Part shown: piece by piece, positions 1-64,000 of the stretch
Layout of the letters: each line of letters opens with the position of its first letter
Position numbering within the stretch: the first letter of the stretch is position 1
Origin: Dudresnaya verticillata
Lineage: Eukaryota
NCBI GenBank assembly: GCA_977862235.1
Contig: OZ374564.1
Coordinates: 1-64,000, forward strand
Length of the DNA: 64,000 nucleotides
Reading direction: 5' to 3'
Translations under genes and position numbers: made by a program
The notes under the pieces: generated by a model
What the model was told of the DNA's origin: nothing
Database searches by the model: none
Seen by the model: only the letters and a program-made list of their open reading frames with translations

Positions 1-3
1 GAG

Positions 4-1535
4 TCCTAAACCCCTAAACCCCTAAAACCCCTAAACCCCTAAACCCCTAAACCCCTAAAACCCCCTAAACCCCTAAACCCCTCCCCTAAACCCCTAAACC
101 CCTAAACCCTAAAACCCCTAAACCCCTAAAACCCCTAAAACCCCTAACCCCTAAACCCCTAAACCCCTAAACCCTAAAACCCCTAAACCCCTAAACCCCT
201 AAACCCCTAAACCCCTAAAACCCCTAAACCCCTAAAACCCCTAAACCCCTAAACCCCTAAACCCTAAACCCCTAAACCCCTAAACCCCTAAACCCCTAAA
301 CCCCTAAACCCCTAAACCCCTAAACCCCTAAACCCCTAAACCCCTAAACCCCTAAACCCCTAAACCCCTAAACCCCTAAACCCCTAAACCCCTAAACCCC
401 TAAACCCCTAAACCCCTAAACCCCTAAACCCCTAAACCCCTAAACCCCTAAACCCCTAAACCCCTAAACCCCTAAACCCCTAAACCCCTAAACCCCTAAA
501 CCCCTAAACCCCTAAACCCCTAAACCCCTAAACCCCTAAACCCCTAAACCCCTAAACCCCTAAACCCCTAAACCCCTAAACCCCTAAACCCCTAAACCCC
601 TAAACCCCTAAACCCCTAAACCCCTAAACCCCTAAACCCCTAAACCCCTAAACCCCTAAACCCCTAAACCCCTAAACCCCTAAACCCCTAAACCCCTAAA
701 CCCCTAAACCCCTAAACCCCTAAACCCCTAAACCCCTAAACCCCTAAACCCCTAAACCCCTAAACCCCTAAACCCTAAACCCCTAAAACCCCTAAACCCC
801 TAAACCCCTAAACCCCTAAACCCCTAAAACCCCTAAACCCCTAAACCCCTAAACCCCTAAACCCCTAAACCCTCTAAACCCCTAAACCCCTTAAACCCCT
901 AAAGCCCTAAAACCCCTAAACCCCTAAACCCCTAAACCCCTAAACCCCTAAACCCCTAAAACCCCTAAACCCCTAAACCCCTAAAAACCCCTAAAAACCC
1001 CTAAAACCCCTAAACCCCTAAACCCCTAAAACCCCTAAACCCCTAAACCCCTAAACCCCTAAACCCCTAAACCCCTAAACCCCTAAAACCCCTAAACCCC
1101 TAAACCCCTAAAACCCCTAAAACCCCTAAACCCTAAACCCCTAAACCCCTAAACCCCTAAACCCCTAAACCCCTAAACCCCTAAACCCCTAAAACCCCTA
1201 AACCCCTAAAACCCCTAAACCCCTAAACCCCTAAAACCCCTAAACCCTAAACCCCTAAACCCCTAAACCCCTAAAACCCCTAAAACCCCTAAAACCCCTA
1301 AACCCTAAACCCCTAAAACCCCTAAACCCCTAAACCCCTAAACCCCTAAACCCCTAAAACCCCTAAAACCTAAACCCCTAAACCCCTAAACCCCTAAAAC
1401 CCCTAAACCCCTAAACCCCTAAACCCCTAAAAACCCCTAAACCCCTAAAACCCCTAAACCCCTAAACCCCTAAACCCCTAAACCCCTAAAACCCCTAAAC
1501 CCCTAAACCCCTAAAACCCCTATAAACCCCTAAAC
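4..1535. repeat. Terminal telomeric array (CCCCTAAA)n = TTTAGGGG on the minus strand; left chromosome end
   Basis: About 1.5 kb of tandem 8-mer with the C-rich strand at the 5' end. Homogeneous from ~290 to 770; 7-mer and 9-mer variants (CCCTAAA, CCCCTAAAA) elsewhere. Confidence 0.97.
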
Positions 1536-1573
1536 TTACTACTTTCAGCACCTCAACCCCATCACGCACGATA

Positions 1574-1621
1574 CCTAAAACCCCTAAACCCCTAAACCCC
1601 TAAACCCCTAAACCCCTAAAC
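1574..1621. repeat. Internal telomeric tract 1
   Basis: About 6 CCCCTAAA units, separated from the terminal array by 38 bp of unique sequence (1536-1573). Confidence 0.95.
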
Positions 1622-16941: not shown

Positions 16942-19452
16942 AGAATTGCGGATGCAATGTTCGTACTCGGTTTCCGTGTACTTCTGCCGGTCGGCCTGGA
17001 TTGCAGACTTGCAATCGAAGCCGGGTCTTCGGATTCGGTAGTACTCTGTCGCTCAAGTCCGACTCTGCCTCCGTTCTTCTGCCGGTCGGCCTCGATTGCA
17101 AACTTGCAATCGAAGCCGGGTCCTCGGATTCGGTACTACTCTGCCGTTCAAGCCCAACAGCCTCCTTTCTTGTGCCGGTCGGCCTCAGTTGCAAACTGGC
17201 AATTGAAGCTGGTTGCCTCACAAGTTCACAAAGAATATCCGCTTCTCCTTAGAGTTCAAAACGGGCTCTTTTGCAAGCTAACAACTGTGTTCGTCCCCAA
17301 GGAATGGCCAGGGCTCTGTTGTAAGCTTAAAATGTGCCCGGTTTTCAAACTCTCGTGGAGACAAGGTCGATGATTGCCAGTACCTACGCAGACAATTAGA
17401 ATTACAAGTCAACTCGGGCAATTGGACGATGCAGTGGATCCGACGGTGCGCTTGCCAACGGAATAGTTCTGCGTTGCTCGCGTCACGTCAGACGCGCAGA
17501 AAGGAAGGGAAGAAGGCTCTGTGCAGGGCAGAACGTCAAGGAAAGAGGTTTGCGGTCGCAAATCGAAATGTTCGGCACGTCGAGGGTCGAAAAAGAAGCT
17601 ATAGTTGAGCGGCTTAGGGTCAGGGGGGTGATTGTCTGGATCGTGGGGAGGCCATGGGCCTCTCAACTGTCTGTCGCACTTATGCACAACTGCCGTCGAT
17701 ATTTTGGCGGGAAACCGAAACAGGGCCAGCTTGCTCTCCTGTATGTGAGATCCCTGTCTGGCGGGAATCTTGCGCAACCTCGCTCTCCTGACAAGTGTTT
17801 CAATTACGGTGCCGAATAGCAGTTTGCGACCAATGCCTGGTGATTCTTCACACCTATCGTATCAATGCGTTTTGGTACGTTTGGAAACTGCCGCCAGACT
17901 CACGCCATCAGACTTAAACCCCACACTCCAGTCGGTGGTCGTCCCCTCCCCCTCCCCCTCTCTCCAGAGACACCGACCCTAGCCCAAAGTTCAACACCTC
18001 CCCGCAGCTTCCCCGACAGAGTCACACCGGAGCTGGCCTGCTTCCCTGCCCCATCCGATTGCCAACGTCGCCGTCGGGCGCAGCCGTGCGCACTAACCTA
18101 ATCCACAGCGATCCAATTCGGATATTATCTAGTTCTTCTGTTTGGATCCCATTCGGATCCAATTAGAGAAGCAGATCATATCCGGCCTAGGTTGCAAACT
18201 TGCAATCGAGGCCGGATGGGAAAATCCGAGGCATAATGTACGTATTATCCCCCTCACTTCACGATCTCTTCGTCACGACTTACATTTCCCGCTCAATAGA
18301 GTTCGCAAGGGGCCTGTGCCAGCCCCTTCACACCCTCCGGCCACGATTGCAAGCTTGCACCCTAGGCCGCAAGGCCCATTGGGCTGTGTGGAGCATGCTT
18401 TCCATCCGGCCTGCATTGCAAACTTTCAATCGAGGCCAAGAGGGTTGGAGTGCGTTCGAGTGCGCTGTGTGGAGCATTCTTTCTATCCGGCCTGCATTGC
18501 CAACTTTCAATTGAGGCCGGGAGGGTTGAAACAGGCTGTATGGAGCATTCTTTCCATCCGGTCACGTTCAGTAATCGGGATAATACGTAGACATTAGTCC
18601 ACGTATTCTCCCGCTCACTACACGATCTTTGCTAGTAAAGGACTTCCTTTCTCAGTGTTGTCGCTGGTGTTTCGATACCCAGACAATGGATGCCTTACTG
18701 ACTCGTTGTATGCCCACACCTGGTTGCCTGCAAACCTGCGGGTGGTAGAGTTAGCATTCACCACACTTGTTTCCTTCCCTGGACTTGTTGCGCATTACAT
18801 GTCTACAAGTACGGAACTGAATGTGCTGAATGCTTCGTATGGTCGTCGGTCTAACAGTGCATGCGGGCCGGTGCCACGCGCCTCGTTGCATTGTGTGCGC
18901 CAAACCCAATGACAAACTCCCCACAGAGTTTGTTTCCGGTAGGCTTACAGGTTTATTTGCGAGCGCGCGCCCTTTTTCCGCTCTCGATTTTGTATTTCGT
19001 ATTTTGAACCGCATGGATGCAGCATGCGCGCGCACGCAAATCGATACCAGCACTGCGTGCTCGACACGTGCACTGCGCCTGCTGTGTTGGTTGGCCGAAA
19101 GCAGCACGGCACCGTGTGCGCTCCGTGCTTCACAGTGTGTATTCGCCGTTAAGCATGAAGTCGGCCCTCACGGGGTCAGGAAGGCTGTTATTAAGCATGG
19201 AGTCGAAACGAATCGGCCAATGCTGGCCTATAGCGATACCCTCTCACAGTAGTTCGTATTGCGCGACTCGGTCCTTAACGGAATGTTGATTTGTCATTAA
19301 TCTGGGCGTTTCGTCTCCATGCTTAACCCCGGATTACATATAGATAGTGGATCTCACGCTCTCAGTAGTGACCGCGGCGCCTCTACCCTTCCATACAGCA
19401 GTGTGAAGTGGTCTAGGGGGCTTCTACTAGTACATCATTACTTCAAGGCCCT

Positions 19453-28104: not shown

Positions 28105-29799
28105 ATGGAGGTTTATCCGGTCAGCGCGACAGGACTTGATCGCTCGCAGACCAATGCTATCAAGGCCTTTCAGAAGGGAAAGAGTGTGGCTATTTTAGGC
28201 GGGGCGGGGTCTGGAAAGACTCATGTTTTGAAAGAAATTGTGAGACGCACACGGTCTAGTTCCAGTCGTCACCAGCAAGTTGCGGTTTGTGCACTGAGCA
28301 ATATTGCTGCGTCCAATCTCAATGGATGTACGATGCACTCCCTGTTTTCCGTTCATTGTTCATGGGGATGGTCAAAGAGACATCTTTGGGAGAAGGTATC
28401 CGGAAATGAACGACTATGCGGTATTTTGAGGGAGATCAAGTGCTTACTCATTGATGAGATTTCTCTCATGAAAAGGAACGAAATTGAAGCAATCGACTAT
28501 GTCCTACGTCGACTTACGTCGCGGGAGGAGGACGCCGCATTGCTTATGGGTGGAAGACAGCTCATAACCGCTGGTGATCCCTTTCAGCTGGAACCCTCTG
28601 GTGTTGAGGACACAAAGTGTTACTTTGAAACTTTCTTCCAATCTCGAGTTTGGTTTCTACTATTCACAGGGTATGGAAATGGAGCTGTTGTTTTGCTAGA
28701 CCATAACCATCGTCAGAGGGAGGACAGTGTATTCTACTCTATACTACAGAGATTTCGGTACGCCTCGCCCCGGGACTCTGATATTGTTGAGCTAAATACA
28801 ACAAGCGCGCAATCACACAATGCTCCGCCCAACGGTTCCACGCGTCTATGCCTAAAGAAGGTAGAGGTTGCCGGTGTCAATGGAAGAGAGATGGAGAAAC
28901 TAGAGGGCCATGATTTTGTTTGCATTGGTGCGGGCACATACGGCAGGCAACCATCAGACTCAGTGGCGAAGCGTTTGGAAGAAGTTGCCCCAGTAAGGTT
29001 GGTAATAGGGAAGAACTGTTTAGTCGTGCTGACCCGAAAATATGGGGACTTCAACCCAGGATCTCGATTTATGGTCACGGATGTCGTCACCATGGCGGCG
29101 AGCTCGCCTATATACGGACGTGACAGTAGAAGACAGTTCGATGCGAAGCATGTATCCGTCACTCTAGCGCCGCTCTCTCACTCGTCCTCGCAAACGTCGA
29201 CGCTATCGCGTCTGGCGGGTGCACGGACTATCTGCGTGCGACCGATGAGCTTCACGGTGCACAACTACGATACTAGCGTTGCTGGAACTAGGGTACAACT
29301 TCCCATTCTTGTCGCGTATGCGATGACAATCCATCGCAGTCAAGGAATAAGTCTCGAAAGCGTAGCGGTTGACTTTTCTGGAATGGGAGCATGGAGGCCG
29401 AATGGGATGGTGTATGTCGCACTCTCAAGATGCATTAGGAAGGATGCTTTGTAGATAAAGGGGCTGTCAGGAGACCATGTGAGAATAAGTGAAAGAGCTA
29501 AGGTGGCCATGTCGGGCATAATTTTCTTTCCGGGGAGCTATCCGCAACGATTTATTGGGGAGAAAGCGTTGAAGCAGTACATGACGGATATTAGTAAGTG
29601 CAATGTACGATCGAGTCGACTTGGAGGACAAACTGCGACAAGTGAGGAAGACGAGAAGGATGAAATAGACCAAGCAGTATGTCCAGAAGGTGTGAAGAGA
29701 AAAAGACCAGACACTGGAAACCATATCTCGAGGAAGGAGGACATGAACCCTAATGTCATGAGATCCTCGAAGCGACGTCATCCACAGCAACTGCGCTAG
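28105..29799 (+). pseudogene. PIF1: PIF1-family SF1B helicase with a premature TAG at 29452
   Basis: GGAGSGKT, LIDEISL, GDPFQL, HRQRED, QLPILVAYAMTIHRSQG, VYVALSR. The same frame continues after the TAG (L*IKGL) to 29799. Confidence 0.88.
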
Positions 29800-30502: not shown

Positions 30503-30956
30503 CTCCAGAAATTCACTTCTAGAATCGCTGTTTGGGACTCGCATAGGCCGCCGAAACAAAACAGCCGGACATCGGGCCATGAAAAAATATTTCTAGACCG
30601 CCGAAACGAAAGGGCTGGGCACCAGCGGGGGAACGGAATGTTTCGGCCCATGAAAAAATATATTTCTAGGCCGCCGAAACATCACGGCTTGCAATTTGTT
30701 TCGTCCTCTGCTTTCAATTAGCCGTAATTAAATACGCATATGTGGCAACAGGGGACAAAACATTTACAAGCCGTAATGTTTCGGCGGCCTAGAAATATAT
30801 TTTTTCATGGGCAGAAACATTCCGTTCCCCCGCTGGTGCCCAGCCCTTTCGTTTCGGCGGCCTAGAAATATTTTTTTTCATGGCCCGATGTCCGGCTGTT
30901 TTGTTTCGGCGGCCTATGCGAGTCCCAAACAGCGATTCTAGAAGTGAATTTCGGAG
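30503..30956. mobile_element. Foldback/MITE-like element with ~200-bp inverted arms
   Basis: 30503-30710 is the near-perfect reverse complement of 30750-30956. Internal GGCCGCCGAAAC-type motif is repeated 3 times per arm. Confidence 0.85.
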
Positions 30957-33951: not shown

Positions 33952-35578
33952 ATTTTATTTGTTGTTTAGCGTGGTCCTGCGTGGGCGACTTTGGCCCATT
34001 TGCTGGCACACGTGCTTTCGGAGAGCAGGAAGTGGTACACTACTGGATGGGGTGGCTGTGGTCGGTGGGCAGGTCTACTGGGAGGCAGGCGGTGAGGGGT
34101 AGTCTTCGGAGCATATACTACGGATGGCCCGCAGGGCGTCACAGACGCGGTGGGCGGCAGATGGATCGGGGTCTTGAAGTGACAGGAGTGACAGGGTCTT
34201 CGCGTGCGGTCGCATCGCGAGGCGGGCAGCTTGGCAGCTGGGTGGGATCGGGAAAGTCCCAAGATGCCAGCGCGTGGCTAGCTTCCTGTCTTGGTGGTCC
34301 GGGAGTTCCAGGGCTAGAGGTAACCGGTGGTGGCTGTAAACTGGCGCCGTTCTTCTTCCTGATAGTGCCATCGTCCATTCCCTTATTGCGAGTGTTTTAG
34401 GTGACGTACCTTGGTGGGGACTCTGTTGGATGCCTGGACATCGAAAGATCGATAGCGCCGTAAGTGTCCTACGTGCCTACCATGAGGCTGGGGTGTTCTG
34501 CCGCTTGGTCAAGCGGTGCAGGCTGTGAACGAGTTTGTGTTGTAGGGATCTTTGTCGCAGTGTTGGGGGCTCCAGCCTGTACAGGGCTCGGAGTTTGCGT
34601 AAGCGAGGTGCGGTAACGACTGGTGATGCTTGGGAGATACATAGGCGGAGGAACTGTGTGTCGAGCTTGTCGAGAGCTTGGGTTAGGTCTTGTGTGCACG
34701 GGACGAGTGCTAGGCCGTGTTCAATTATTGGACGTATGAAGGCCGAGTAGACATATCGGGCGGCGGGGGCAGGCATTGTTGAGCTTAGGTGACCCATTCT
34801 CACTAGCTCGCCTACAGCACGTTGGGCTTTTCTTACGAGCTGTATAGTTGTGGCTGTCCCGATTCCAGACGTTGAGATGTCGACTCCCAGGTAGCGGACA
34901 CTTTGTTGATGCACTATTCTCTCATTGTTTAGGGTGAATGTGCAGTTGTTAGGGCGTGTGCGGTGCCGGGCCGGCATGAGGATGGCACATTTCTTGACAG
35001 ACCAACACATGCCTGTGTCTCGGGCCCACTCTTCGCCGACCTGGAGTGCTGTATGAATAAATGCAGGTGATGGTCCATGAAGGAGGCAATCATCTGCGAA
35101 CAGGCGGCCCGGCGGGTTTGACGCAGGTCGGTTCAGCCGCTCACATAATGCGTGCGCTAGAGGGTCAATGAACAAATTGAATAAAACTGGGCTTAGCGGA
35201 GATCCCTGCACGACCCCCCTTCTGACTTCTGCGCTGCAAGGCGTCGCGTCGCCCACGGTCCTTACATAAAGGGAACCCAGGGTGGAGGTTATCATCGCTG
35301 TGAGGTGCGGCGGGAGTCGCTCTTCGCATAGGGACAGAAGTTTGGGGCGGTCGACTCGATCATACGCGCTTTTGAGATCAAGAACGGCTAGGTAATCCTC
35401 TCCAGCTGTTACGGACTCCATGGTCATGGCAATTGCCATCTCTGTGCGCAAATGTTTCTGGAACCCCAGCTGCATACGGTGCGGCTTAAATACGCGTTCA
35501 ACATCATAGGCAATCGCCCTTTCCACTGCTTTGCGAAGGTGGGATAGCAGGCAGAGTGGGCGGTAGATGTCCGGATCA
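33952..35578 (-). mobile_element. 5'-truncated non-LTR (LINE-like) retrotransposon with RT pseudogene
   Basis: DPDIYRPLCLLS, LDLKSAYDRV, GVVQGSPLSPVLFNLFID, LFADD, YLG. In-frame TAG at 34477, then a C-terminal RWHLGTFP region to 34075; conserved 3' tail at ~33952-34010. Confidence 0.9.
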
Positions 35579-36845
35579 ATTGTGGTGTGAATACCTGTCG
35601 CCTGTTCGAGATGTGGTGCTTGACATTCTGTGCCGGTTTGGCATTCTAATGCGTTTGCACTCTACAGAGACGGAGGGTGATGAGCGGAAGGAGCTAGTCG
35701 GGATTCCGTCGTTGCTTCCCAAAGGTTGGGAGGGATTCCAGTGCCCTACGAAAGAAGGAGAGTGCGAAATTGTTTTGAGAACCATCTTTGACGATGCCAT
35801 TCCCCCTGGCTTGGAGGGCTACTTTGTTGCATTCCTTCATCGCATTATCAGAGGAGAGCGAACAAAGCCACCGGAACTTCGCCAAGATGCTGTAATTCTT
35901 TCTCTGAAGGGGACTTGCCGCGTTGTTGTTTGCTTCGTTCCTAAGAAAAGATGGATTGTGTGGACGATCAGGTGCGATGCCGTCTCAGGAATGAAGGTGG
36001 CTCAAGAATGTTTGAAAGCTATGGAAGATTTTTTGACAAGACCTCCGCACGGAAGCAACGCAGCTCGGAATCATTTTCTAGTTACTGATTGCCCTTCGAG
36101 CATCCAGGGGGGTTGCGGTGGCTCTAAAAGTGTGTTGTTGTCAATACCTCAGACATGGGTTTCGACTGAAGAATGTCAGGCACTCGATGAGGCAGAAGGA
36201 AAATGCTATTGCAATCAACTGTGGAACTATGGACAACTGAAGTTACATATTCTTGAGGGTGTGTCTGAGGGATCAAGCCACGATCATTTTGAACTACAAG
36301 ACTCAGTAACTCCGTATGATGTCTTTATTAGCCACGCAGGCCCGGAAAGGATATCTGTTGCCTACCCGCTACGGAATGCATTGAAAGCAATGGGATTGCG
36401 GTGTTTTTTGGATGAAGAGAGTTTGAAGGTTTCGGAACGTACAAACGAAGAGCAAATTCGAGCGGCAATTCGCGGCAGTAAGGCTGCCGCTTTCATTCTT
36501 TCGCCGTCGTTTGTGGCTCGCAAGTGGCCGATGTTAGAGCTGTCAGAATTTCTCGAACGAAAGCAGAGACCACAGTCACCTGTACTATTCCCGCTTTTCT
36601 ACCAACTGCAGGTGGAAGACTGCAAGAACAAGCAGCTTCCGTATGACGAACGGTTTCGGCGTGTATTTGAAGATAATCACTTTTTCCACCACGAACGCCA
36701 GAAGAAGGTTCCAGTGACGGAGGTAATGGAGACACTTGCGAAAGTGACAGGATATATCGGTGTTCGGAACGATGTCCGTGGAGAGACCCATACTCAGTTT
36801 GCAACAAGAGCAGCAGAAAAATTCTCTTGCGAGTTTGCAAGTTAA
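35579..36845 (+). pseudogene. 5'-truncated Roco-type COR + TIR domain gene
   Basis: COR-like LDILCRFG...IPSLLP...IPPGL. TIR motifs YDVFISHAG, CFLDEESL, FILSPSF and WPMLEL with the catalytic-position Glu. The 5' end abuts the LINE. Confidence 0.8.
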
Positions 36846-44222: not shown

Positions 44223-44772
44223 TTTTAATGGTTGTTTTAGGTGGTCCCGCTCGGGCGACTTAAAGGCCCATGTGCAGGCACACCAGGATCAGCTACAGTG
44301 GAAGAGGGCTGTCACTGTAGTGTACCCCGGGAAGGAAAAAAGGACAGCGGTGGTGTGTCTATGATTGGGAGGATGGCGGCGTGTTCAGAGAGGGAAACTC
44401 GGCAGAGCACAGGGTGCGGATGGCGGCGATCGTACTGGCAATGGTGTGTAGATCGTCTGGGGTGGCGTCTGGCTTGGAGAGCAGATGGAGGGCTTGGGTG
44501 TGGGTTCGAAGGGTTGCACGTTTGGTAGGGCAGGAAGGGAGGATGGGGAAGGTACCCAAATGCCACCGGATGGCCAGCAGTCTGTCGCGGTAGTCGTGCC
44601 TTAGGAGAATGCTGAGAATGTGGCTGGCGCGTTGTGTAGGAGGAGGGATTTTGCTGGTTTGGCGTCTCCACCCCGCCGTGCGGGGTCCCCATTTGGTACT
44701 GGGCGCTGGTACTGTCAACCAGGGGGAGGTCGCTTTATCATAGAGATAATAACAACCGAGTAGCCCCTATCC
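44223..44772 (-). mobile_element. Non-LTR retrotransposon 3' fragment (RWHLGTFP family) fused to the gypsy RT
   Basis: LAIRWHLGTFPIL in ORF 44359-44718; conserved tail at 44223-44280. Confidence 0.75.
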
Positions 44773-46810
44773 AATATAGGTGGAGAGATAAGGCGTCTCT
44801 TCAGTTCCTCGAAGGCTTCATATTCCGTATCGGATAATATTCCAAACTCAAAGGGTGAGCCCTTGCCGGTTTTCTTATTCAGCGGTGCTGAAATCCGAGC
44901 GAAGTTGGGTACAAAGCGACGATACACGTTGCACATTCCCAAGAAGGATCGCAATTCCGTTTGGTTAGTCGGCGGCTTCGCGACCTTAACGGATTGGATA
45001 TTCCGATTATCCACTTCTAATTTTCCGGGACGGATAACATGCCCCAGGTATTGTACAGACGCGTTGAAGAAGTCACACTTTGACAATTTCAACGTTACCC
45101 CAGCGGATCGTAAAAGCGTAAGGACTTCCTTCAGGTGGTGGAAATGTTCCGTAACGGTTTTTGAGTAGACAATTACATCGTCCAGGTAGACGAGGGCAAA
45201 TTGCCATTTAACCGTAGAAAGGATTATATCCACTGCCCGTTGGAAGGTTGCCGGTGCATTTTTCAATCCGAATGGCATTCTCCGAAAACGGTATAAGCCA
45301 AAATGGCTAGTGAAGGTAGTTTTGTCCCTTTCCTCTTCCGGAATCTCGACTTGCCAATATCCGCTATTGCAATCCAGGGTTGTAAATACAGTAGCTTCCC
45401 CAAGGGAATCTATGCACTCATCCATCCTGGGCAAGGGATATGAGTCCCTAACCGTTACGGAATTGAGCCTTCTATAGTCAACACAGAACCGCATGGTGCC
45501 GTCCTTTTTTGGAACGAAAACCACGGGGCTGGCCCACTCCGATGAGGCTGGTTCAATTACCTTAGCGGAAAGCATGCGATCGATCTCTGTCTTTTCGAGA
45601 TCTCGCTGCTTATGTCCGGCACGGTATGGGGCTTGATATACTGGCTTAGCTTCGGGAGTTAACTCGATGCGGTGCTTGGCAGCTGTAATGTTGCCAAGAT
45701 CGCCACTCCACATCGACTTATATTCCTCCAGTAGGGTTAAAATCCGTTTGCGGAGCGATGCTTCTTCTGTTCCGATCTGGACTTGATCCTTCCAGTCGGT
45801 AGTATTTGTATTTTCCGTTACGGGTTTGCTTAGTTCCTTGTCGTGAGGGGAGATGCTGCTGGCCTTTTCGGAGGTAGGGTTAGAATTAAATGATTGAATA
45901 ATTCCCCCCCCTCCTTAAATGGAGGTATACCGTCAACGGTAAAAATAGCAGAGGGGGCAGCAGTAGCGAGGCCCACGACAGTAGATTTGGGCAACCGTAC
46001 CGGCTTGTTAGAAAAATTAGAGACCCAGATCCGAAACGGTTTGTTTGGTACAACATCCATAATGCCATTAGCCATTAACGTAAGGTGCTTAAAAGCCGGC
46101 TTAGGATGATTTTGTAGAAAGCATAACCCACCCGTGGGGGGATTAACCGTTACGGTGGCTTGAGCCATAGGGGGAATAAGGGTAGATTTTGCTAAACAAA
46201 TTTTCTGAGAAACCGTAGCGGTAGAGAGAGGTGAGGGCTGTAGGGTTGCAGTGGTTCCCGTCTTCGGAATTTTGGCTTGACCAACAAGGGATACCGGTGG
46301 GTAATGATGAAAAACAACTTTCCGTAACGGAGGGAGTATTGCCTTCACGTAGCGGTCGATGAAGGTAGTTCCCAAAATACAGGGAGCCGCCAAGTTCGCG
46401 ACCACTAGAAACTGGACGCGAGCACGGAGCTCTCCGATACGGACGAAAAGTTGGATCTGACCAAGAGGGCGTATAGCGCGATTAGACGCATCCCGTAATG
46501 GAGGACTGGCGGCTGGGCGTATGAGTGGGAGCCATTGGCGCGGAAGGCGCCTGGCACTAATGAGATTGGGCCCAGCGCCAGAGTCCAAGACGGAGATTAA
46601 AGGAAGCATCACGCTATCTGTCCGTCCCACGGTAATTTGCATCTTGTAATTTTGATGTTGCATAAAGAAGATAGTATCATTGGTCTGATAAGCCAATGGG
46701 AGTTCCGTAACGGTATCTCGCCGATCCCCTGGCGGGTCCACACTCGCGAGAGGTGGAACGCCGTGAGACGGGGATGGCGGCGCCCTTACGCATCCCCCCT
46801 TGAGTTTTCC
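44773..46810 (-). pseudogene. pol: Pol (aspartic protease + RT), frameshifted and truncated
   Basis: LDSGA protease motif; WASPVVFVPKKDG, RFCVDYRRLN, MPFGLKNAPATFQ and YLDD. Frameshift at the C homopolymer ~45904-45911. Confidence 0.9.
46770..46810 (-). promoter_or_regulatory. Predicted -1 ribosomal frameshift signal between gag and pol
   Basis: Slippery G-GAA-AAC (46810-46804); a -1 shift enters the pol frame. Followed by a GGGGATG...CATCCCC stem-loop. Confidence 0.7.
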
Positions 46811-49266
46811 GAATTCAAGGTTCCACCAGTCGGATCCGCCTCCATGGGCTCGCGCAATTCTGCGAGTTCCACTCCGTCATGGTCCTCCACCGATAGTATC
46901 GGGGCATTCCGTTGCGGAGGGGGCGTTTGCGGTCTGCCCCGATTCCCTTGCGGATTCGAACTGGTTCCTACTACGAACCTGCGACCTACAGGGTAGTGCT
47001 TCTGGAAGTTGCGCTCGCGCTCTTCCATAAGCCTAACCCGATCGGAGTCATGTATCCATGGGCAAACAACGTGCTCTGGCGAAAGGCAGATGCGACAGTT
47101 ACCACTTCCGTAAAGGCGTCGGACCCGAGGATCCGACTCATCCCGTAGCGGAGGTGCTTGTTGCTGCTGTCCTCGCCCATCGTGGGCATTATTTCCGTAA
47201 CGGTGACTCGGCTGCTGTTGGGGGCCAGGAGCCGGGCGAGATCCACCATAGGGGGGACCTTGCGCGCGTGGCATCCTGGGCGGAGTAGGGTGGACGCTTT
47301 GCGGGGGCGAGGAGTACGGGGTAGAAAAGGTAACCCCCGTGCTCGTACCCGTAGCGGCACCGTGGCCTCCCTCGACGGCTAGCACTTGATTATCCGTAGC
47401 GGAAAGATTCCCTTGCGACTCATAGTGTACATCCGATACGGAATCCAGCGACAACACCTTAGACGGGCGCGCTTTAGTGCGCCCATCAAAGACGTGAGCC
47501 GGAACGGTTTGGCGTCGAGCTGCCCGATGGGACTGACCCAGGCCAGTCGCATAGCGAGTGATGGCCTGGTAATCCAACTGGGAATGCGTCGCTAGATAAT
47601 TTCTCATCTGTTGACGAGTACCCGGTAGGAGTCCTTCAACGAACAGTGACTTCAATGCCCGATCGGAAAATACTGTACCGCAACGGAGAGCCTTGGCCTT
47701 GAGCTGGTTCGAGTACTGCTCTTCCGTCATGGTGGATGTTTGCCTGAAGTTGGTGACATCCGTATAGGCTTCAGCAATCACTTCATCCTTAGCGTAGGTT
47801 CTCAATAAAAAGTTCACCACCTCGGAATATGTGCGGAGCATCTCGGCCTGCTCCACATCAACCGCCATGGTACCTCCAGCAAGCCTAGCCTGTAGAAGGG
47901 CTTCGGCCTGTCCTTTAAGGAAAAACTGGAAGCACCAGACGGCAACCCCTTCGGCGATGCCGTTGATGTTACAACCGTCACGGAACTTAGCGAGAAATCC
48001 CAAGACGGTAATAGGGTCCGTCCCATCGAATGTATGGGACGACATCTGGACGTCGAGTTTCTTCCGTATACGGCTCATGTTCTGTGAGAACTTAGAGCCG
48101 TAGGTCTTACTCCTCTTATCCAATCGGTAGGTGCGGTAGTCCAGCGCCTTGACAAACTTGTCATGTAGCGGCCGGATTACCTTAACCTTTCCGGATTTGG
48201 CACCGTGTTTTCCGGCCCGGTGCCTATTCTCCCTATCCGTTACGGAAGAACTCTCTGAGTCTGAATCCGTAGAGGTAGAGGGGTCATGCCTTTTTTCGCG
48301 TTTCCGCGATCTTCTGTTTCTCCTCTTGCGGCGGCGGTGTTGGCTATCCTCTGAGCTGCTCTCATTGGATTCCATACCGGATTGGTGGTGTCGTCGCTGG
48401 GTGTGGTCGTCCATGTGCGACCGACGGGGAGGGTCAGAGCGGGAGTGTCGGGCATCTCGTTTATGCCGACCTCGACCGGTCCTCCGACTCGGATGGGGTG
48501 AGCTGGACGCATCGCTGAGATGGTCGCTGCCTCCACCTGATCGAACCGGAACGGTATAGCGCTCTTGCTGATAGCGCCCTGGCGTAGGCACATCTACGTG
48601 TCCAGGTGAATACCGTAACGGTGGCTGAGTGTGTGTTGGTCCCGTAGGGGCGTGTTGATGTTGAGAATCCGTTACGGGAGCCGGTGGCAGTGGTCCAGAG
48701 GGTACTGTGCCCGGCGGCAATCCCATAACGGGGGGTTGTTGCGGCTGCTGCGTTCTTCCCTCGACCGGGAAGTCATTCCGTAACGGTGGTTGCTCAGTGA
48801 AAGCTTCCGTAGCGGGAGGCCTTGCCATGCCGGGAGCAATCTGGCTCTCGAGCTCGGCGGCCACCTTTTCCTGTAGGATCAAAGCTTGCACTATCCGAGG
48901 AAGGTGCTGCTCCAGATAGGAATTAACCAAAGATGGAACAGTTTCCGAGAGGGATATCTCCACCTCTTTTACCATTCCAGGTTGTACTTCCAATCGGAGA
49001 TGCTCTAGCACCCTAGGAAGGACCTCCGACAGAACCCAGTGGACCCGATGGGATTCCGGCTTGGGTTGCGGAGCTGCCTTCTTGGAGGCGTCTGATCCGA
49101 CACGGGAACGGGGAGCTTTACCAGCAACACCCTTTAGGATGTCTTCTGGGTTCTCCGCTCCGGAACGGATTTCACCTCCTTCACTGCGCAGACTGCGCGC
49201 AGCGGGGGTAGTGTCACCCGCTTTTGGTTCCGTAACGGGAGGGTCTGCGTGTTCTTCGTTCTGCAT
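46786..49266 (-). CDS. gag: Gag polyprotein (826 aa)
   Basis: Intact ORF after the LTR. Capsid-like FDGTDP...FRQ...FVEGL and a CxxC..H..C knuckle (CRICLSPEHVVC). Confidence 0.85.
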   Translation of the reverse strand: MQNEEHADPPVTEPKAGDTTPAARSLRSEGGEIRSGAENPEDILKGVAGKAPRSRVGSDASKKAAPQPKPESHRVHWVLSEVLPRVLEHLRLEVQPGMVKEVEISLSETVPSLVNSYLEQHLPRIVQALILQEKVAAELESQIAPGMARPPATEAFTEQPPLRNDFPVEGRTQQPQQPPVMGLPPGTVPSGPLPPAPVTDSQHQHAPTGPTHTQPPLRYSPGHVDVPTPGRYQQERYTVPVRSGGGSDHLSDASSSPHPSRRTGRGRHKRDARHSRSDPPRRSHMDDHTQRRHHQSGMESNESSSEDSQHRRRKRRNRRSRKREKRHDPSTSTDSDSESSSVTDRENRHRAGKHGAKSGKVKVIRPLHDKFVKALDYRTYRLDKRSKTYGSKFSQNMSRIRKKLDVQMSSHTFDGTDPITVLGFLAKFRDGCNINGIAEGVAVWCFQFFLKGQAEALLQARLAGGTMAVDVEQAEMLRTYSEVVNFLLRTYAKDEVIAEAYTDVTNFRQTSTMTEEQYSNQLKAKALRCGTVFSDRALKSLFVEGLLPGTRQQMRNYLATHSQLDYQAITRYATGLGQSHRAARRQTVPAHVFDGRTKARPSKVLSLDSVSDVHYESQGNLSATDNQVLAVEGGHGAATGTSTGVTFSTPYSSPPQSVHPTPPRMPRAQGPPYGGSRPAPGPQQQPSHRYGNNAHDGRGQQQQAPPLRDESDPRVRRLYGSGNCRICLSPEHVVCPWIHDSDRVRLMEERERNFQKHYPVGRRFVVGTSSNPQGNRGRPQTPPPQRNAPILSVEDHDGVELAELREPMEADPTGGTLNSENSRGDA

Positions 49267-56242: not shown

Positions 56243-59200
56243 ATGGTGGACTCTGTGCTTTCTCTCCTCGAGACCAGTATCAAGGTTGTTCAGCACATTC
56301 GTAATAGTCTTGAAGCTCGCAAACAAAACGCAACATCCTTCGTGACGATAGCCAATGGCATTCAACGTATTCGCTTGGCTTATCAAGACTTTCGCAACAA
56401 CCACTACCTCTCCGCCATCCACGACGATGTCAGCAGCCACATTAGAGCAGAGTTGGAAATGGTTCAGCCCCATTTGGAGGCACTTTCGCAGCAGGTAGAC
56501 AAACGAAAGCCTTTACGCTTGTTGCTAGGCGCCATCGAAGCTCGTGAGGCGATCATAAAGGTACAATCCCTTGTGACAGGGCTAGAAAGACACTTGGATG
56601 CTTGTCGGCTCATGGTGAAACACTTTCAGATCCATGACTCCCGCCTCAGTGAAATATATGAACTGTTGCACAAGCATGTCATCAAAGAGGTTCCGAGCTC
56701 TTCCTCTGCGGGAGACGTGACGGCACAAGATGAGGTGGTCTCAATCGATGCCACTTCTGCGCGACTTCAAGGAACAGATCCGAGCAGCTCGAGTAGCCCC
56801 AGTCAGACCTCGCCCCACTCTCCAGGCCCGACAATGAGTATACAATCTGAACAGCTTGATAAGGAGGAGGAGGACGAGATCCAATTCATATCGTCGCTGC
56901 CCATGGCGATGAAGTTGATAGCGAAAAGCGATGTCCCGGAAGATGTGAAACGGAAGCTACAGCAGAAGATAGACGACTTCCAGACTCGGTGGGAGTTGAA
57001 GTTTGACGACTTGGTGTTTGAGAAAGGCAGAAGGGGAGGATGGGTCGAGTTGGGCGAAGGCGGTTTCAGCAGGGTGTACAAAGCGAAGCTCCGCCAAGGT
57101 GAAACATTCCTAGAAGTGGCAGTCAAAGAGCTAAAGGTAAAGAAGCCGGAACTGGAGAAGTTCAAGCCAAAGTTTTTGCGTGAGGTGCACGGCCTGATTC
57201 AGTACCGGCATCGCTGTATCTTGGAGGCACATGGGGCCATCTGGGCGAAGAGCGATGAGACAGAAGACGGTCACAACCCGATGATTGTTCTAGAACGCAT
57301 GACCTGCAGCCTCCACGAAGCGATTCAAGAATGCTCGGCAGCGGTGGAGGACATGGCTGTGAGAAAGGGTATCGCGCTGGATGTGGCTGCTGCGCTCGCA
57401 CATCTGCACGAGAAGAGCGTTGTTCACAGGGACGTGAAGCCTGAAAACGTGTTGCTGTGTGTTAGGAACAGCGAGGTTGTGCGGCCTGCCAAGCTGTGCG
57501 ACTTTGGCGTATCGCGAGAAGTGCAGGTGACAAAGCAGATGGAAGCGTATGCGCTGAGGAGTAGTAGAGGAGCTGCGTCAGGGACGGTTGTTTTCATGCC
57601 ACCAGAGGTGCTCAAGGACCAAAGAAAGGCGCCGACGCGTCCGTCGTGGGATGTGTGGAGCTTTGGACTACTTTTATGTTTCCTGGGGGGTGGGGCGACG
57701 TCCTTTTCGGAACTGGATTTCATTAACGCCCTGGGTCTAGCAAGAGAAGATCAGCTTGGAGCAGTCGCACGAGAATGGGCGGACTCCATTGGGGATGAGG
57801 CGATGAGGACGGCTGCGTTGCGTTGTTTACAGTCGAAGTGGAAGGAGCGTTGCACTATGGCTGATGTGGTGGCGATTATTTCGCAGGGTATACCAGCTCC
57901 GAGTGACACGGAATTTGCCAGCCTTCTTCTTGACCCACGATGGATGACCATAGATAGCAGTCCTTTGGACATCCCTGGGTGGAAGGAGAATGTGAAAGAG
58001 TTGCGGTGGGCGTGCTTGGCAAATGGGTTGGTTGGTGAAGAAGATTTCGATGCGGGCATGAAGTTGCTGCGGTCAGCAGCGCGAGAGAGCTGGCCGTTCA
58101 TTTTTCGAAACCCGAGGGAGCTGATGTTCCAGATGCAGTCGCGCTTGGTGGACTCATGCGATGAGTCATGGCTCGTGCGGCGGTACCTTGAGACGGCCAG
58201 CAAGGTGTCCCCCACACCTCGAGTTCGATCATTAACTCGGTGCTGGAACATTCCCGGTGGTCGACAAGAGATGGAAATCCCATGTGCGGACAGTGTATGG
58301 AGCTTGGCTGTGACAGGGGATGAAGGAAAAGCTGTGGCAGGCATTGGGAGCAAAGTAGTGCTCATCGACTTGGAAAGCAGTGTTGTCATCCGCGAGTACA
58401 TCGGCCACGAGAGTGCGGTGGAGTGCGTGGCGGTGACGCCAGACGGGCGGCACGTCGTGTCCGGGTCGGGCGACAAGACGTTGCGGGTGTGGGAGTTGGG
58501 GAGCGGCAAGCCCGTGGGGGAGCCGTTGCGCGGTCACACGAGTTGGGTGCGGTGCGTGGCGGTGACGCCAGACGGGCGGCACGTCGTGTCCGGGTCGGAA
58601 GACAAGACGTTGCGGGTGTGGGAGTTGGGGAGCGGCAAGCCCGTGGGGGAGCCGTTGCCCGGTCACACGAGTTCGGTGGAGTGCGTGGCGGTGACGCCAG
58701 ACGGGCGGCACGTCGTGTCCGGGTCGCGGGACAAGACGTTGCGGGTGTGGGAGTTGGGGAGCGGCAAGCCCGTGGGGGAGCCGCTGCGCGGTCACACGCG
58801 TTGGGTGTGGTCCGTGGCGGTGACGCCAGACGGGCGGCACGTCGTGTCCGGGTCGTGGGACAAGACGTTGCGGGTGTGGGAGTTGGGGAGCGGCAAGCCC
58901 GTGGGGGAGCCGTTGCGCGGTCACACAGATTGGGTGCGGTGCGTGGCAGTGACGCCAGACGGGCGGCACGTCGTGTCCGGGTCGGAAGACAAGACGTTGC
59001 GGGTGTGGGAGTTGGGGAGCGGCAAGCCCGTGGGGGAGCCGTTGCGCGGTCACACGAGTTGGGTGCGGTGCGTGGCGGTGACGCCAGAAGGGCGGCACGT
59101 CGTGTCCGCGTCGGGCGACAGGACGTTGCGGGTGTGGGAGTTGGGGAGCGGCAAGCCCGTGGGGGAGCCGTTGCCCGGTCACACGGATTGGGTGCGGTGC

Positions 59201-59800
59201 GTGGCGGTGACGCCAGACGGGCGGCACGTCGTGTCCGGGTCGGGGGACAAGACGTTGCGGGTGTGGGAGTTGGGGAGCGGCAAGCCCGTGGGGGAGCCGT
59301 TGCACGGTCACAATAATTCGGTGCGGTGCGTGGCGGTGACGCCAGACGGGCGGCACGTCGTGTCCGGGTCGTCGGACGGGACGTTGCGGGTGTGGGAGTT
59401 GGGGAGCGGAAAGCCCGTGGGGGAACCGAAAGCGTTTTCGTCATGGGTTGCGAGCGTTGAATGTTTTGGGGCGAGTACTGTGAAGGCTCGTGCTTGGAAT
59501 GGGAATGAACGTTACTATGAGGTGAGTGGAAATGGTCTGCGGGAGATTGATGCGGCTGTTGGAAGAGTTCGTGAGAATGAAGTGCTGCGCGGGAGTGGAA
59601 GCCATCGGAGCGGGTCTGCAGCGGAGGCTGTCGTACGGGTCTCGGGGCGGTCAGTGCGCCTCGGGCAGGACGGGCCGATTCTCGCGACCCTTCCGACAGC
59701 TTTGGCCGAGCCTGGGACGTGGGACTACAATGCTGCGGAAGGTCGACTGGTCGTCGGGCTTCGAGACGGACGTGTGTTGGCGTTGGAGGTGGAGACGTAA
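56243..59800 (+). CDS. MLKL-like four-helix-bundle / protein kinase / WD40-repeat protein
   Basis: Intronless ORF. Kinase motifs GEGGFSRV, VAVK, HRDVKPEN, DFG, MPPE and DVWSFG; 8 WD40 repeats; amphipathic helical N-terminal ~130 aa. Confidence 0.92.
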   Translation: MVDSVLSLLETSIKVVQHIRNSLEARKQNATSFVTIANGIQRIRLAYQDFRNNHYLSAIHDDVSSHIRAELEMVQPHLEALSQQVDKRKPLRLLLGAIEAREAIIKVQSLVTGLERHLDACRLMVKHFQIHDSRLSEIYELLHKHVIKEVPSSSSAGDVTAQDEVVSIDATSARLQGTDPSSSSSPSQTSPHSPGPTMSIQSEQLDKEEEDEIQFISSLPMAMKLIAKSDVPEDVKRKLQQKIDDFQTRWELKFDDLVFEKGRRGGWVELGEGGFSRVYKAKLRQGETFLEVAVKELKVKKPELEKFKPKFLREVHGLIQYRHRCILEAHGAIWAKSDETEDGHNPMIVLERMTCSLHEAIQECSAAVEDMAVRKGIALDVAAALAHLHEKSVVHRDVKPENVLLCVRNSEVVRPAKLCDFGVSREVQVTKQMEAYALRSSRGAASGTVVFMPPEVLKDQRKAPTRPSWDVWSFGLLLCFLGGGATSFSELDFINALGLAREDQLGAVAREWADSIGDEAMRTAALRCLQSKWKERCTMADVVAIISQGIPAPSDTEFASLLLDPRWMTIDSSPLDIPGWKENVKELRWACLANGLVGEEDFDAGMKLLRSAARESWPFIFRNPRELMFQMQSRLVDSCDESWLVRRYLETASKVSPTPRVRSLTRCWNIPGGRQEMEIPCADSVWSLAVTGDEGKAVAGIGSKVVLIDLESSVVIREYIGHESAVECVAVTPDGRHVVSGSGDKTLRVWELGSGKPVGEPLRGHTSWVRCVAVTPDGRHVVSGSEDKTLRVWELGSGKPVGEPLPGHTSSVECVAVTPDGRHVVSGSRDKTLRVWELGSGKPVGEPLRGHTRWVWSVAVTPDGRHVVSGSWDKTLRVWELGSGKPVGEPLRGHTDWVRCVAVTPDGRHVVSGSEDKTLRVWELGSGKPVGEPLRGHTSWVRCVAVTPEGRHVVSASGDRTLRVWELGSGKPVGEPLPGHTDWVRCVAVTPDGRHVVSGSGDKTLRVWELGSGKPVGEPLHGHNNSVRCVAVTPDGRHVVSGSSDGTLRVWELGSGKPVGEPKAFSSWVASVECFGASTVKARAWNGNERYYEVSGNGLREIDAAVGRVRENEVLRGSGSHRSGSAAEAVVRVSGRSVRLGQDGPILATLPTALAEPGTWDYNAAEGRLVVGLRDGRVLALEVET
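58403..59434 (+). repeat. Eight tandem 129-bp (43-aa) WD40 coding repeats
   Basis: GH...VAVTPDGRHVVSGS.D.TLRVWELGSGKPVGEP with an exact 129-nt period. Confidence 0.97.
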
Positions 59801-60770: not shown

Positions 60771-63093
60771 GATTCTGGGACTCATTGTAATTCTTGTCCG
60801 TGCTATATGTGCATTTAGCTTAAATGAATGACAAATAGGGAAGCGTTGAGTATATAACATGGTCTCCAATGGATCCCGACCTGCAGGCCTCTCAAAACAA
60901 TGGGCTTTCCCTATCTTGGCTGCGCTTATCTCAAGACCAGTAGCACAGCTGTAGCACAGTACAGTTACCCATCGCACCCACAGGCACGGGCAATCGCAAA
61001 GAGCTGATTTCAGAACCTCGATTCACATTGCAGTAGCAAAAGCCTTTGTCCCCAATCTGGCGTAGCGTATAAAACACCACGGTTACGAAGCCGTTAAGAA
61101 GGATTCCAAAGTTGCTTGTTTCATGCATTTGGCCGGAGTATCACAGGTGCCAGAATAAAGCGACAGCAAACCATGCTTTGAATCGTAATTAACAAACAAA
61201 GCGCAATGCACAGTCGTCGGAGATTCACAGTTGCAATGCTCCCTCGGAATGTAATCGGGTCTCCGATACTGAAAATCTCGACATTCAAGCACGGCGGGCG
61301 AGGCGGTGGCCGAAATACGTGATGCTGTTACTGTTTTGTATTTGCGTCATGAGGAGTCTCGCAACATCGCTTACTGATGCAATGTAAAGTGTTGAGTTAC
61401 GTAAGTGTCGTGTGCTACGGAAGCATGGGGCGCGCAAGAGACACCGCACGTACAGGGAACAGACGCGTTTGCTTTGCTATAATGGCTCTTAACGAAAAAA
61501 TTAATGGAAAATTCTATCGAGTGCTCATTATTGCGAGATGATGCCTTAGACAAAAGCCCGATCATCAGACTCACTGCTGTGCCTCGGTTATCAGCAAGTA
61601 AGTGTTCAGGTCTATTCTGACCTACTGGGAGATGCGAGAGACGACCACCTCGCTGATCTTAACTCAGCTTGATCCCTCCATGGCAAGCCCAACATGCACA
61701 GGGAGGCTTCTGCGCTCGATTGTATGCGTCAACCCATCTCGGATAACCCTGGAGTACACCTGGACTCCAATCTTTCTCGCAGCAGCTTCAAGATGCTTAG
61801 TCTCTAGTCCGTATGATGTTGCCTGTTGCATTTATTCGCTGCGGGAAGCATACTCTCCTGACCCGTCCAAACTCACTCGTAAATGAATGCGTTGCATTGC
61901 TGCCAAGAGGCATACGTTGGATGGCCGGCGTCCGCCCCGTTGTACAACACGGACAGAACGTCTTGCACACGTCAATTACAAACGCGTCAAAACAGTTACC
62001 GATTTTCCAAATTACGCTCTGCCGCCGGTCGCCGAAACGAAAGTGCGCAGGTCTGTGTCTTTCGTTTCTCCGCAGCTGCCGTATGGAGCGTGGCGCGAGC
62101 ACCATGGCGCTCAAGGCTGCGTCAACACCAACCGCCACCCACCCGCGCCGAACGCCGTCCGTCGTCCGCACCAACATCTGCCACGCTGCTGCTCGTGGAG
62201 CTCAGCGGCGCCGCCTGTCGACAGCGCCCGCTAGCGGCGGACAAGCTGCGCGCGAAAGCCGCGCCTCCGGGACGCTCGCTGTGGGAACCACAAGCATGCG
62301 CAAGAAGTGTGTGCCGCAGCGTCGGGCACAAGTTGTGCCTGCCTCGCGAGAACGAGATTTGCCGGCGCGTAGTGTATTGCGCGATGGTGGACGGGGAGAT
62401 GTGTGTGCATTCAACGCAGTTGGTCCGGTTGGGTACCGTATGAAGTGCTTGCGCGAGCAATTGTTTGGTGATGCCAACAGTGCAGAACCGTCCCTGGCAA
62501 TGTCCCACCGTCAAGCGCGGAACGCCAATGGCTGACTGATTCTGCTGTGCTTGTTGTCGCTCAAGGGCTGCTTCCGCACTTATGTACTGTACAACAAGTT
62601 TGCCCGTTTGTGCTGATTCGGAGCAGTTCCGACCAATCCCGACAACCCTTTCGACCGCATTTCTTGGCTGCCCTTGCGACTCGGCTGGAGAAGTGTGCAA
62701 GCAGATGAAGTCATACAGCTTCCAGTGACCCGCTTTGTTGCGCCCCGCAGGCGAGTCTGTGACTGAGAATACATCTGAGTTGTGTGACCACGAACGGCGG
62801 TGTCGACATCACAACCGAATTTCAGAAAAACCGCGGAGAACTCACAGACTCGTACGCACCCAACCCGGGCGCACTACCCTTGGTAGACACTGGCCACGCC
62901 ACGAGCCCACAAGCGTTTTCTGCTTCACAAGAACTTTCAAAGTACGAAACAGCAACGGTCTGTTCCCCGTCAACCGCCGCCCAAACTCCGGCTTTTGAGT
63001 CGTTTCCATTATCACCAAGCTCCCCAACTGCCCGATCGAGTACAAGACCAAATTCCGTTGCTTCTTTCTGTTGACTTTTTTTGCCTTCACACG

Positions 63094-64000
63094 ATGGTGG
63101 ACTCTGTGGTTTCTCTCCTCGAGACCAGTATCAAGGTTGTTCAGCACATTCGTAATAGTCTTGAAGCTCGCAAACAAAACGCAACATCCTTCGTGACGAT
63201 AGCCGATGGCATTGAACGTATTCGCTTGGGTTATCAAGACTTTCGCAAGAACCACTACCTCTCCGCCATCCATGACGATGTCAGCAGGCACATCAGCGCA
63301 GAGTTGGAAATGGTTCAGCCCCATTTGGAGGGACTTTCGCAGCAGATAGACAATCGAAGGCCTTTCCGCTCGTTGCTAGGCAGCATCGAAGCTCGTGAGG
63401 CGATCATACAGGTAAAATCCTTTGTGACAGGGCTAGAAAGACACTTGGATGCTTGTCGGCTCATGGTGAAACACTTTCAGATCCATGACTCCCGCCTCAG
63501 TGAAATATATGAACTGTTGCACAAGCATGTCATCAAAGAGGTTCCGAGCTCTTCCTCTGCGGGAGGGGTTACGGTACAAGAAGAGGTGACGGTAATCGAC
63601 GCTACCTCTGCGCGACTTCAAGGAACAGATCCAAGCAGCTCGAGTAGTCCCAGTCAGACCTCGCCCCACTCTCCAGGCCCGACAATGAGTATACAATCTG
63701 AACAGCTTGATAAGGAGGACGAGGACGAGATCCAATTCATATCATCGCTGCCCATGGCGATGAAGTTGATAGCGAAAAGCGATGTCCCGGAAGATGTGAA
63801 ACGGACGCTACAGCAGAAGATAGACGACTTCCAGACTCGGTGGGAGTTGAAGTTTGACGACTTGGTGTTTGAGAAAGACAGAAGGGGGTGGGTCGAGTTG
63901 GGTGAAGGTGGTTTCAGCAGGGTGTACAAAGCGAAGCTCCGCCAAGGTGAAACATTCCTGGAAGTGGCAGTCAAAGAGCTAAAGGTAGAGGAGTCGGAAC
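63094..64000 (+). CDS. Tandem paralogue of the four-helix-bundle/kinase gene (partial, runs off the window)
   Basis: ATG at 63094, collinear with 56243-57150 and open to the window end; upstream homology back to ~62720. Confidence 0.9.
   Translation, partial: MVDSVVSLLETSIKVVQHIRNSLEARKQNATSFVTIADGIERIRLGYQDFRKNHYLSAIHDDVSRHISAELEMVQPHLEGLSQQIDNRRPFRSLLGSIEAREAIIQVKSFVTGLERHLDACRLMVKHFQIHDSRLSEIYELLHKHVIKEVPSSSSAGGVTVQEEVTVIDATSARLQGTDPSSSSSPSQTSPHSPGPTMSIQSEQLDKEDEDEIQFISSLPMAMKLIAKSDVPEDVKRTLQQKIDDFQTRWELKFDDLVFEKDRRGWVELGEGGFSRVYKAKLRQGETFLEVAVKELKVEESE

Follow-up and report, generated by a model that had tools for sequence, protein, structure and literature searches.

In a window of 64,000 nucleotides from Dudresnaya verticillata (NCBI GenBank assembly GCA_977862235.1, contig OZ374564.1, positions 1 to 64,000 of the forward strand; called the window throughout) we analyzed a gene whose single open reading frame (ORF) carries, in one chain and in this order, a bundle domain, a kinase, a helical tail and a WD40 propeller (Table 1). 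The start ATG of the 1185-amino-acid (aa) ORF lines up with the N-termini of a tandem paralog and of relatives in an alignment. An earlier note, made from the sequence alone, had described a single chain of bundle, kinase and WD40 repeats at this place, and both this chain and the N-terminal strings quoted there are indeed present in 56243-59800.

Table 1. Features of the gene and of its surroundings in the window.
Feature	Position (nt)	Strand	Remarks
Complete ORF, 1185 aa (P0001)	56243..59800	+	no internal stop, no intron needed
Predicted four-helix bundle, MLKL/HeLo/coiled-coil-like, aa 1-~130, last helix to aa 144	56243..56674	+	
Ser/Pro-rich linker, aa ~145-205, poorly conserved	56675..56857	+	sequence, family alignment
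Pre-kinase segment, conserved, aa 206-262, placed like the MLKL/Pm13 brace	56858..57028	+	alignment of 8 family members
Protein kinase domain, aa 263-548, every catalytic motif	57029..57886	+	
Putative helical tail of STAND (NB-ARC/NACHT-WD40) receptors, aa 605-673	58055..58261	+	HHalign, hidden Markov model (HMM), ESM
First propeller blade, divergent, aa ~680-720	58280..58402	+	propeller profiles begin at aa 666-698
Eight 129-nt WD40 repeats, highly conserved internally	58403..59434	+	variable unit positions 3, 4, 5, 7, 23, 25, 43
Divergent C-terminal region, aa 1065-1185	59435..59797	+	probably more propeller blades
Tandem paralog, ORF from 63094	62910..64000	+	leaves the window inside the kinase N-lobe
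Telomeric array, 8-nt unit, about 199 copies	1..1621	.	repeat count

The WD40 array shows a striking pattern of conservation and change. Pfam recognizes 8 WD40 stretches in the protein, and a tandem-repeat scan returned a period of 129 nt with 7.8 copies and 93% matches. The 8 units of 43 aa (344 aa in total) share a pairwise nucleotide identity of 88.6-96.1% (mean 92.8%), and the array exceeds 85% internal identity over at least 100 aa, which is the criterion of Dyrka et al. (PMC4986451), in whose available text internally conserved repeats are given as 0.4-1.2% of repeat proteins and as about 21% of the WD domains of fungal NOD-like receptors (NLRs; NOD, nucleotide-binding oligomerization domain). 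Differences between the units are not scattered evenly: 7 of the 43 codons hold 22 of the 30 extra nucleotide alleles (p about 5e-5 under a uniform model that allows for picking the best 7), while codons 5, 7, 23 and 25 alone (4/43) hold 13/30 of these alleles and 10/20 of the extra amino-acid states (binomial p 1e-6). Positions 5/7 and 23/25 flank an invariant Val and Asp, respectively, and form 7 residue combinations among the 8 repeats. In the HNWD repeats of Podospora, positive selection acts at codons 7/9 and 25/27, and in each of these pairs, which belong to the top binding face of the propeller, the two codons enclose a conserved residue (available text of Paoletti et al., PMC1805685); the register that places our positions 5/7 and 23/25 onto HET-E 7/9 and 25/27 is our own mapping, made from the spacing and the middle residues. 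The scaffold codons of the repeats appear to be under constraint, because their nonsynonymous diversity (pN 0.010) is lower than the synonymous one (pS 0.042); at the variable sites pN is 0.40 against a pS of 0.21, a comparison biased by the fact that the sites were picked afterwards. The propeller had been called hypervariable, and this holds only for the comparison between repeats of this one copy. The first propeller blade has 68% identity, as the first copy in repeat family D1. At the other end of the array Pfam finds no match in aa 1065-1185, and an assignment of the last 120 aa, made by eye, as the C-terminus of a STAND protein was rejected, since in two trials it did not stand out from shuffled sequences (rank 364 of about 2000).

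The kinase domain (Pfam Pkinase, aa 269-544, E 7.7e-36) keeps all catalytic motifs, as had been stated before: the Gly-loop (269-276), VAVK (292-295), the alphaC Glu (314), HRDxKPxN (395-402), DFG (420-422) and PPE (453-455). Judged by these motifs the kinase looks active, and the pseudokinase hallmark of animal and Arabidopsis MLKL is thus absent from the gene. The solved kinases closest to the family profile are BIK1, EGFR, CTR1, CDPK and IRAK4. In the pre-kinase segment (aa 206-262) Pfam gave no significant match; its position and conservation suggest that it is helical.

For the N-terminal domain, AlphaFold2 with a 15-row alignment gave a confident four-helix bundle (predicted local distance difference test, pLDDT, 86.3; predicted template modelling score, pTM, 0.77) with helices at aa 4-25, 31-51, 54-86 and 93-144. 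A profile built from 13 relatives outside the window matches the N-terminus at E 1.4e-17, and when 950 frames of the window were searched with a profile free of window rows, the gene and its paralog were both recovered (E about 1e-17). In the family alignment M1 and L78 are invariant and L114 and E115 nearly so; the K-x-N / KR-x-L-x-LL-x-A pattern, on which the proposed likeness to MLKL had been based in part, is present in the gene but is kept only loosely by its relatives. MLKL_N is the Pfam family matched by most members, in 4/15 rows and with a best E of 1.2e-4, always below the cut-off. In the ESM Atlas the first matches of the bundle (0.93-0.94) are fungal clusters in which 16-28% of members carry PF17111 and 13-24% carry SesA, and 10/10 of the best family matches belong to one clan; PF17111 was named Helo_like_N and aligned to human MLKL (available text of Wojciechowski et al., 10.1101/2022.03.16.484565). 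The bundle model superposes over its whole domain on the coiled-coil (CC) domain of Rx, the CC-R domain of NRG1.1, the CC domain of MLA13 and MLKL. In the case of mouse MLKL (4btf), residues 7-117 lie on 2-117, N-terminus on N-terminus, with an identity to the bundle of 22% in comparison to 3-15% for the other 49 rows listed. Membership of the N-terminus in the MLKL/HeLo/CC class of four-helix-bundle folds is thus well supported by the models, and kinship with the MLKL/HeLo-like domains within this class is likely. When four copies were modelled together, the median complex score was 0.39 against 0.00 for the best of 3 controls; the runs agreed in at least 86% of contacts, with a pLDDT of at least 66, and the modelled self-contact lies mainly at aa 105-142, in helices 2-4 and not in helix 1. 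The bundle is therefore predicted to self-associate through its last helix.

The protein has no Walker A motif, no Pfam family is found in aa 546-696, and only about 56 aa separate the kinase from the propeller module; because of the missing Walker A motif and this short distance we conclude, in agreement with the earlier note, that the gene has no NACHT or NB-ARC domain. The stretch itself gave no Pfam or PDB match, and APAF1_C was not matched either, but in its nearest ESM cluster (0.85, to be taken as a lead only) APAF1_C occurs in 22% of members. In signal transduction ATPases with numerous domains (STAND proteins) the helical tail lies between the APAF-1 helical domain and the propeller. 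From 78 bacterial loci recovered with aa 575-806, we picked by eye, out of 57 ORFs listed, 8 with a common helical motif before the propeller, and built a profile from them; 6 of these proteins have NB-ARC or NACHT, 1 has a kinase instead and 1 has nothing recognized, with APAF1_C in 4/8. This profile aligned to aa 605-673 with an HHalign probability of 92% (E 6.3e-7, 68 columns), and this was its sole match below E 0.8 in a set of 977 window frames and comparison proteins. The HMM score was 27.0 bits, while 2000 shuffles reached at most 7.3, and profiles cut down to 3 and 4 rows also scored above the best shuffle (13.8 vs 7.4 and 15.7 vs 9.0 bits). In the simplest reading of these matches, a bundle+kinase gene probably took over the 3' part of an NLR gene, with the break behind the NOD. 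Which way this graft went is read from the variety of C-termini among the relatives, and not from a rooted test.

These relatives form a family of their own. With aa 200-720 as the query, two proteins (P0003, P0004) came up that share the N-terminus and the kinase with the gene but end in Sel1 repeats. A profile of four N-termini, run against 1.84 billion representatives, gave 13 matches at E<=0.001, two of which are members of the query itself; proteins of 651-2074 aa were covered by single-sequence regions and not by the profile. Among the 7/13 matches with a whole kinase, 5 have a Sel1 C-terminus, 1 a full HSP70 and 1 nothing recognized, while the other 6/13 comprise 3 that stop at the start of the kinase, 2 short bundle-only proteins (P0014, P0022) and 1 with an unassigned tail. 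None of the 13 carries WD40 repeats. Of 8 aligned members, 7 have an intact kinase; the exception, P0023, has lost HRD and DFG and retains the bundle and the Sel1 repeats. In a tree with 9 outgroups, to which a long-branch warning applies, the 8 kinases of the family group together as a separate clade (99/99). The gene thus belongs to an unnamed bundle+kinase family with exchanged C-termini. In one member (P0020) the same bundle and kinase are joined to a near-complete HSP70 (E 1.2e-170), a candidate integrated decoy. Two candidates from this survey were rejected: a profile match to P0029, found in a search of longer proteins (1692-4830 aa), was false and ran through Sel1, and a nuclease domain guessed in P0018 had no support in Pfam. 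A word-based homolog search with aa 1-160 found none among 1042 candidates, a metagenome scan (1/64 parts) gave 80 loci of generic kinases only, and the bundle profile had no match in 158 loci (best E 0.72).

The gene lies in a subtelomere, at a distance of 54.6 kb from the telomeric array, in a region with many retroelements, helicase-like ORFs and duplications. Few introns and many WD40, Sel1 and TIR genes would fit the genome of a red alga. The paralog is identical to it in 92.5% of nucleotides over 1.1 kb, about 190 nt upstream included. Between the two bundles (56243-56632 and 63094-63483) there are 18 replacement and 2 silent changes, and the replacement excess is not significant (Fisher p 0.27). 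A Sel1-repeat ORF (2732-3691, minus strand, E 1.2e-11) is found close to the telomeric array, about 1.1 kb away. A further ORF (35490-36845, plus strand) has a TIR domain at its C-terminus (TIR_2, E 7.7e-15), preceded by a 270-aa region without assignment, which we take to resemble the end of a COR domain. Its start adjoins a reverse-transcriptase (RT) ORF on the opposite strand (34477-35661), and because of this the ORF may represent a ROCO-TIR gene interrupted by an insertion. A direct duplication of 3.64 kb with 98.7% identity (8779-12416 and 15703-19343) contains a C2H2-like zinc-finger ORF; together with a DEAD-helicase ORF (14403-16040, minus strand) and two short tracts that resemble telomeric sequence (8752-8780 and 12417-12513) it possibly makes up a subtelomeric mobile unit. 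The window also holds a PIF1-like helicase ORF (28105-29454, plus strand, E 9.8e-21), possibly from a Helitron-type element, the gag, protease-like and RT ORFs of a long terminal repeat (LTR) retrotransposon (44715-49266, minus strand), and a self-complementary stretch of 454 nt (30503-30956, 91.7%), which is a foldback or an element like a miniature inverted-repeat transposable element (MITE).

What could such a protein do? We see an even chance that the gene encodes a one-chain non-self receptor, with the kinase as its switch and the bundle as a membrane-damaging effector. The propeller would bind a variable non-self or modified-self ligand, this binding would switch the state of the kinase, and the switched kinase would free the bundle to oligomerize and damage membranes. 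Ligand binding on the top face of the propeller is suggested by homology of the repeats; the kinase as a switch, the membrane damage and the cell death are proposed by analogy. A broader idea, to which we give somewhat less than even weight, is that the family as a whole represents a new kind of immune receptor, in which a kinase replaces the NOD and an MLKL-like executioner is combined with exchangeable sensors (Sel1, an HSP70 decoy, NLR-derived WD40); one chain would then carry out recognition, RIPK3-like activation and MLKL-like killing.

Several results weigh against the bundle as an MLKL-type effector, or against the evidence for the receptor as a whole. Pfam gave no significant match for aa 1-160 of the window protein and no MLKL, HeLo or RPW8 model, and the curated cut-off for MLKL_N (PF22215), PF17111, SesA or RPW8 was reached by no family row, so that by sequence the domain is not a formal member of the MLKL or HeLo-like families. 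In profile searches of the PDB human MLKL appeared in only 1 of 3 alignments (E 0.22). Foldseek with the bundle model returned nothing at E<=0.001, with MLKL absent among the matches listed; the structural check that had been suggested thus yielded a confident bundle but no Foldseek match at this level. In a first comparison with VIA-align (root-mean-square deviation, rmsd) MLKL was absent among the 50 rows listed, and IncA came first (Z 14.7, rmsd 2.3, 135 aligned), followed by a designed protein and then by the CC of Rx (Z 12.2, rmsd 2.3, 108 aligned), with NRG1.1 CC-R (Z 10.2, rmsd 3.4, 107 aligned) and NRC2 (Z 9.2) below and mouse MLKL (4btf) at row 31 of a wider search (Z 8.3, rmsd 2.6, 93 aligned); a Z below about 13 may reflect a common arrangement, and unrelated bundles (IncA, Z 14.7 and 11.8) score above the death domains. 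Thus, of the MLKL/HeLo-like N-terminus claimed earlier, the fold class stands, but descent specifically from MLKL does not follow. Helix 1 is amphipathic and less hydrophobic than that of most relatives (mean 0.70 vs 0.45-1.81). One of the three four-copy runs scored 0.05, and although the mark for the complex score is passed by 21/30 solved homo-pairs and 0/23 single chains (17/29 and 0/30 in eukaryotes), the four-copy job differs from this calibration set and its pass may reflect likeness to solved complexes. As to the tail, the loci behind its profile were recovered by a query containing aa 605-673, which biases the scores upward, and a profile of only the two least query-like rows gave 6.7 bits, below the best shuffle (8.1). 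Finally, in wheat Pm13 it is the brace with the kinase that kills, in a kinase-dependent manner, and neither the bundle nor the bundle with the brace does so (available text of PMC11297308).

This last result leads to a different explanation, in which the propeller would still sense non-self but the output would be kinase signalling, as in Pm13, with the bundle serving only for autoinhibition or oligomerization. It would explain why the kinase is intact in 7/8 aligned members, unlike in animal MLKL, and why a conserved segment lies in the brace position before it; the modelled self-contact through helices 2-4 and not helix 1 agrees with it as well. It fits poorly with P0023, which lacks HRD and DFG yet has the bundle and Sel1 repeats, and with the two bundle-only matches without a kinase (P0014, P0022), although these may be fragments. 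Moreover, wheat R3AK is arranged the opposite way: helix 1 of its bundle kills, under the control of the kinase site, and a catalytic mutant of its kinase is auto-active (available text of 10.64898/2026.08.07.743466). It is because the plant precedents are split that a kinase output has to be considered, and we find it rather unlikely. Since Pm13 and R3AK disagree on the killing domain, the role of the bundle as executioner is unproven; what stands of the immune receptor-executioner proposed in the earlier note is an N-terminal bundle of the MLKL/HeLo/CC class, the intact kinase, a HET-E-like repeat array and the absence of a NOD. Because of the auto-active R3AK mutant, a kinase-dead control may also give an effect of the opposite sign.

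The gene could also be a signalling kinase with no part in immunity, whose generic bundle oligomerizes and whose WD40 propeller docks a substrate, the likeness of the repeats being the product of recent expansion and gene conversion. The structural scores, which do not favour death domains, and the kinase-WD40 fusions found in bacteria too (L046, L062) are in line with this, and GC content at third codon positions (GC3), 0.91 in the array vs 0.52-0.74 elsewhere, fits homogenization by conversion. However, it does not explain why the variation concentrates at the positions equivalent to those of HET-E, why the module has an NLR tail, why the family exchanges repeat and HSP70 C-termini, or the subtelomeric tandem duplication near TIR and Sel1 genes, and we consider it improbable. 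Still less credible is an unselected recent chimera, i.e. a bundle+kinase gene that accidentally picked up the 3' part of an NLR gene: a transposon-rich subtelomere with segmental duplications would provide the setting, and the WD40 end is shared by 0/13 relatives, but the 3.5-kb frame is fully open with all catalytic motifs kept, the scaffold codons are constrained, and the second copy, 7.5% diverged, is yet open over all 302 visible codons. Both explanations fit the repeat pattern less well than the non-self receptor with a killing bundle does.

Among known systems, the wheat MLKL kinase-fusion proteins Pm13 (MLKL-K) and R3AK also have a bundle, a segment in the brace position and a kinase with catalytic motifs, and the gene fits this layout, a likeness of layout only. 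They have no C-terminal repeat sensor, and R3AK relies on a separate NLR sensor. In Supplementary Data 9 of the Pm13 paper, as far as its available text goes, 8/8 WD40 rows are MLKL_NTD+WD40 proteins of grasses with no kinase label (PMC11297308). Animal MLKL (PDB 4btf, 2msv) shows the same order of bundle, brace and kinase fold, and its bundle superposes on that of the gene; it is a pseudokinase switched by RIPK3 and has no sensor, whereas the gene has a propeller and a kinase that looks active. On the side of the sensor, Podospora HET-E and HET-D (HNWD) have near-identical WD40 repeats that vary at the same four top-face positions, and some of the fungal all-in-one HeLo-like-NACHT-WD40 NLRs carry a HeLo-like N-terminus. 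All of these switch via NACHT, while the gene has only the post-NOD helical tail, with a kinase in the center. Bacterial NB-ARC/NACHT-APAF1_C-WD40 STAND proteins (L015, L025, L059, L076, L035) run through the same tail into similar WD40 repeats, but they keep the NOD and have TIR or other N-termini. A protein from Bryobacteraceae (L046:2714-5755, plus strand) consists of a Ser/Thr kinase, the STAND helical tail and 13 WD40 repeats with no NOD, like the gene but without a bundle; because its kinase lies outside the family of the gene, the design of kinase and propeller without a NOD seems to have evolved there independently. Fungi have both HELL-kinase or HELL-pseudokinase fusions and NOD-less protease-repeat sensors with WD40, TPR or ANK, which in the available text of a review (PMC12881547) are two separate architectures, while the gene would unite them in one chain. 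In a red seaweed, WD40 and Sel1 proteins were counted among the potential receptors for pathogens (available text of PMC12115072).

In the literature, mainly open papers judged by titles and abstracts, we found no description of a bundle, kinase and WD40 combination. The earlier note had called the architecture uncharacterized; its front part, a bundle with an active kinase, is already characterized in wheat, and it is solely for its joining to a HET-E-type sensor that we found no description. If the proposed reading is true, an NLR sensor module can move onto a kinase-controlled MLKL chassis, the designs of NLRs and of necroptosis are joined in one chain, and the gene makes it possible to test directly if the NOD can be replaced by a kinase as a switch. 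It would also provide a concrete candidate for cell-death immunity, suited to expression, from a lineage for which we found no such effector described. How Pm13 and R3AK recognize their triggers is stated as unknown in the available text of 10.64898/2026.08.07.743466, and a family with a built-in sensor would be a simpler system for studying trigger recognition by MLKL-kinase receptors. The gene is neither an NLR, as it has no NOD, nor MLKL proper, as it has no pseudokinase; its layout is NLR-like and its front half is MLKL-like.

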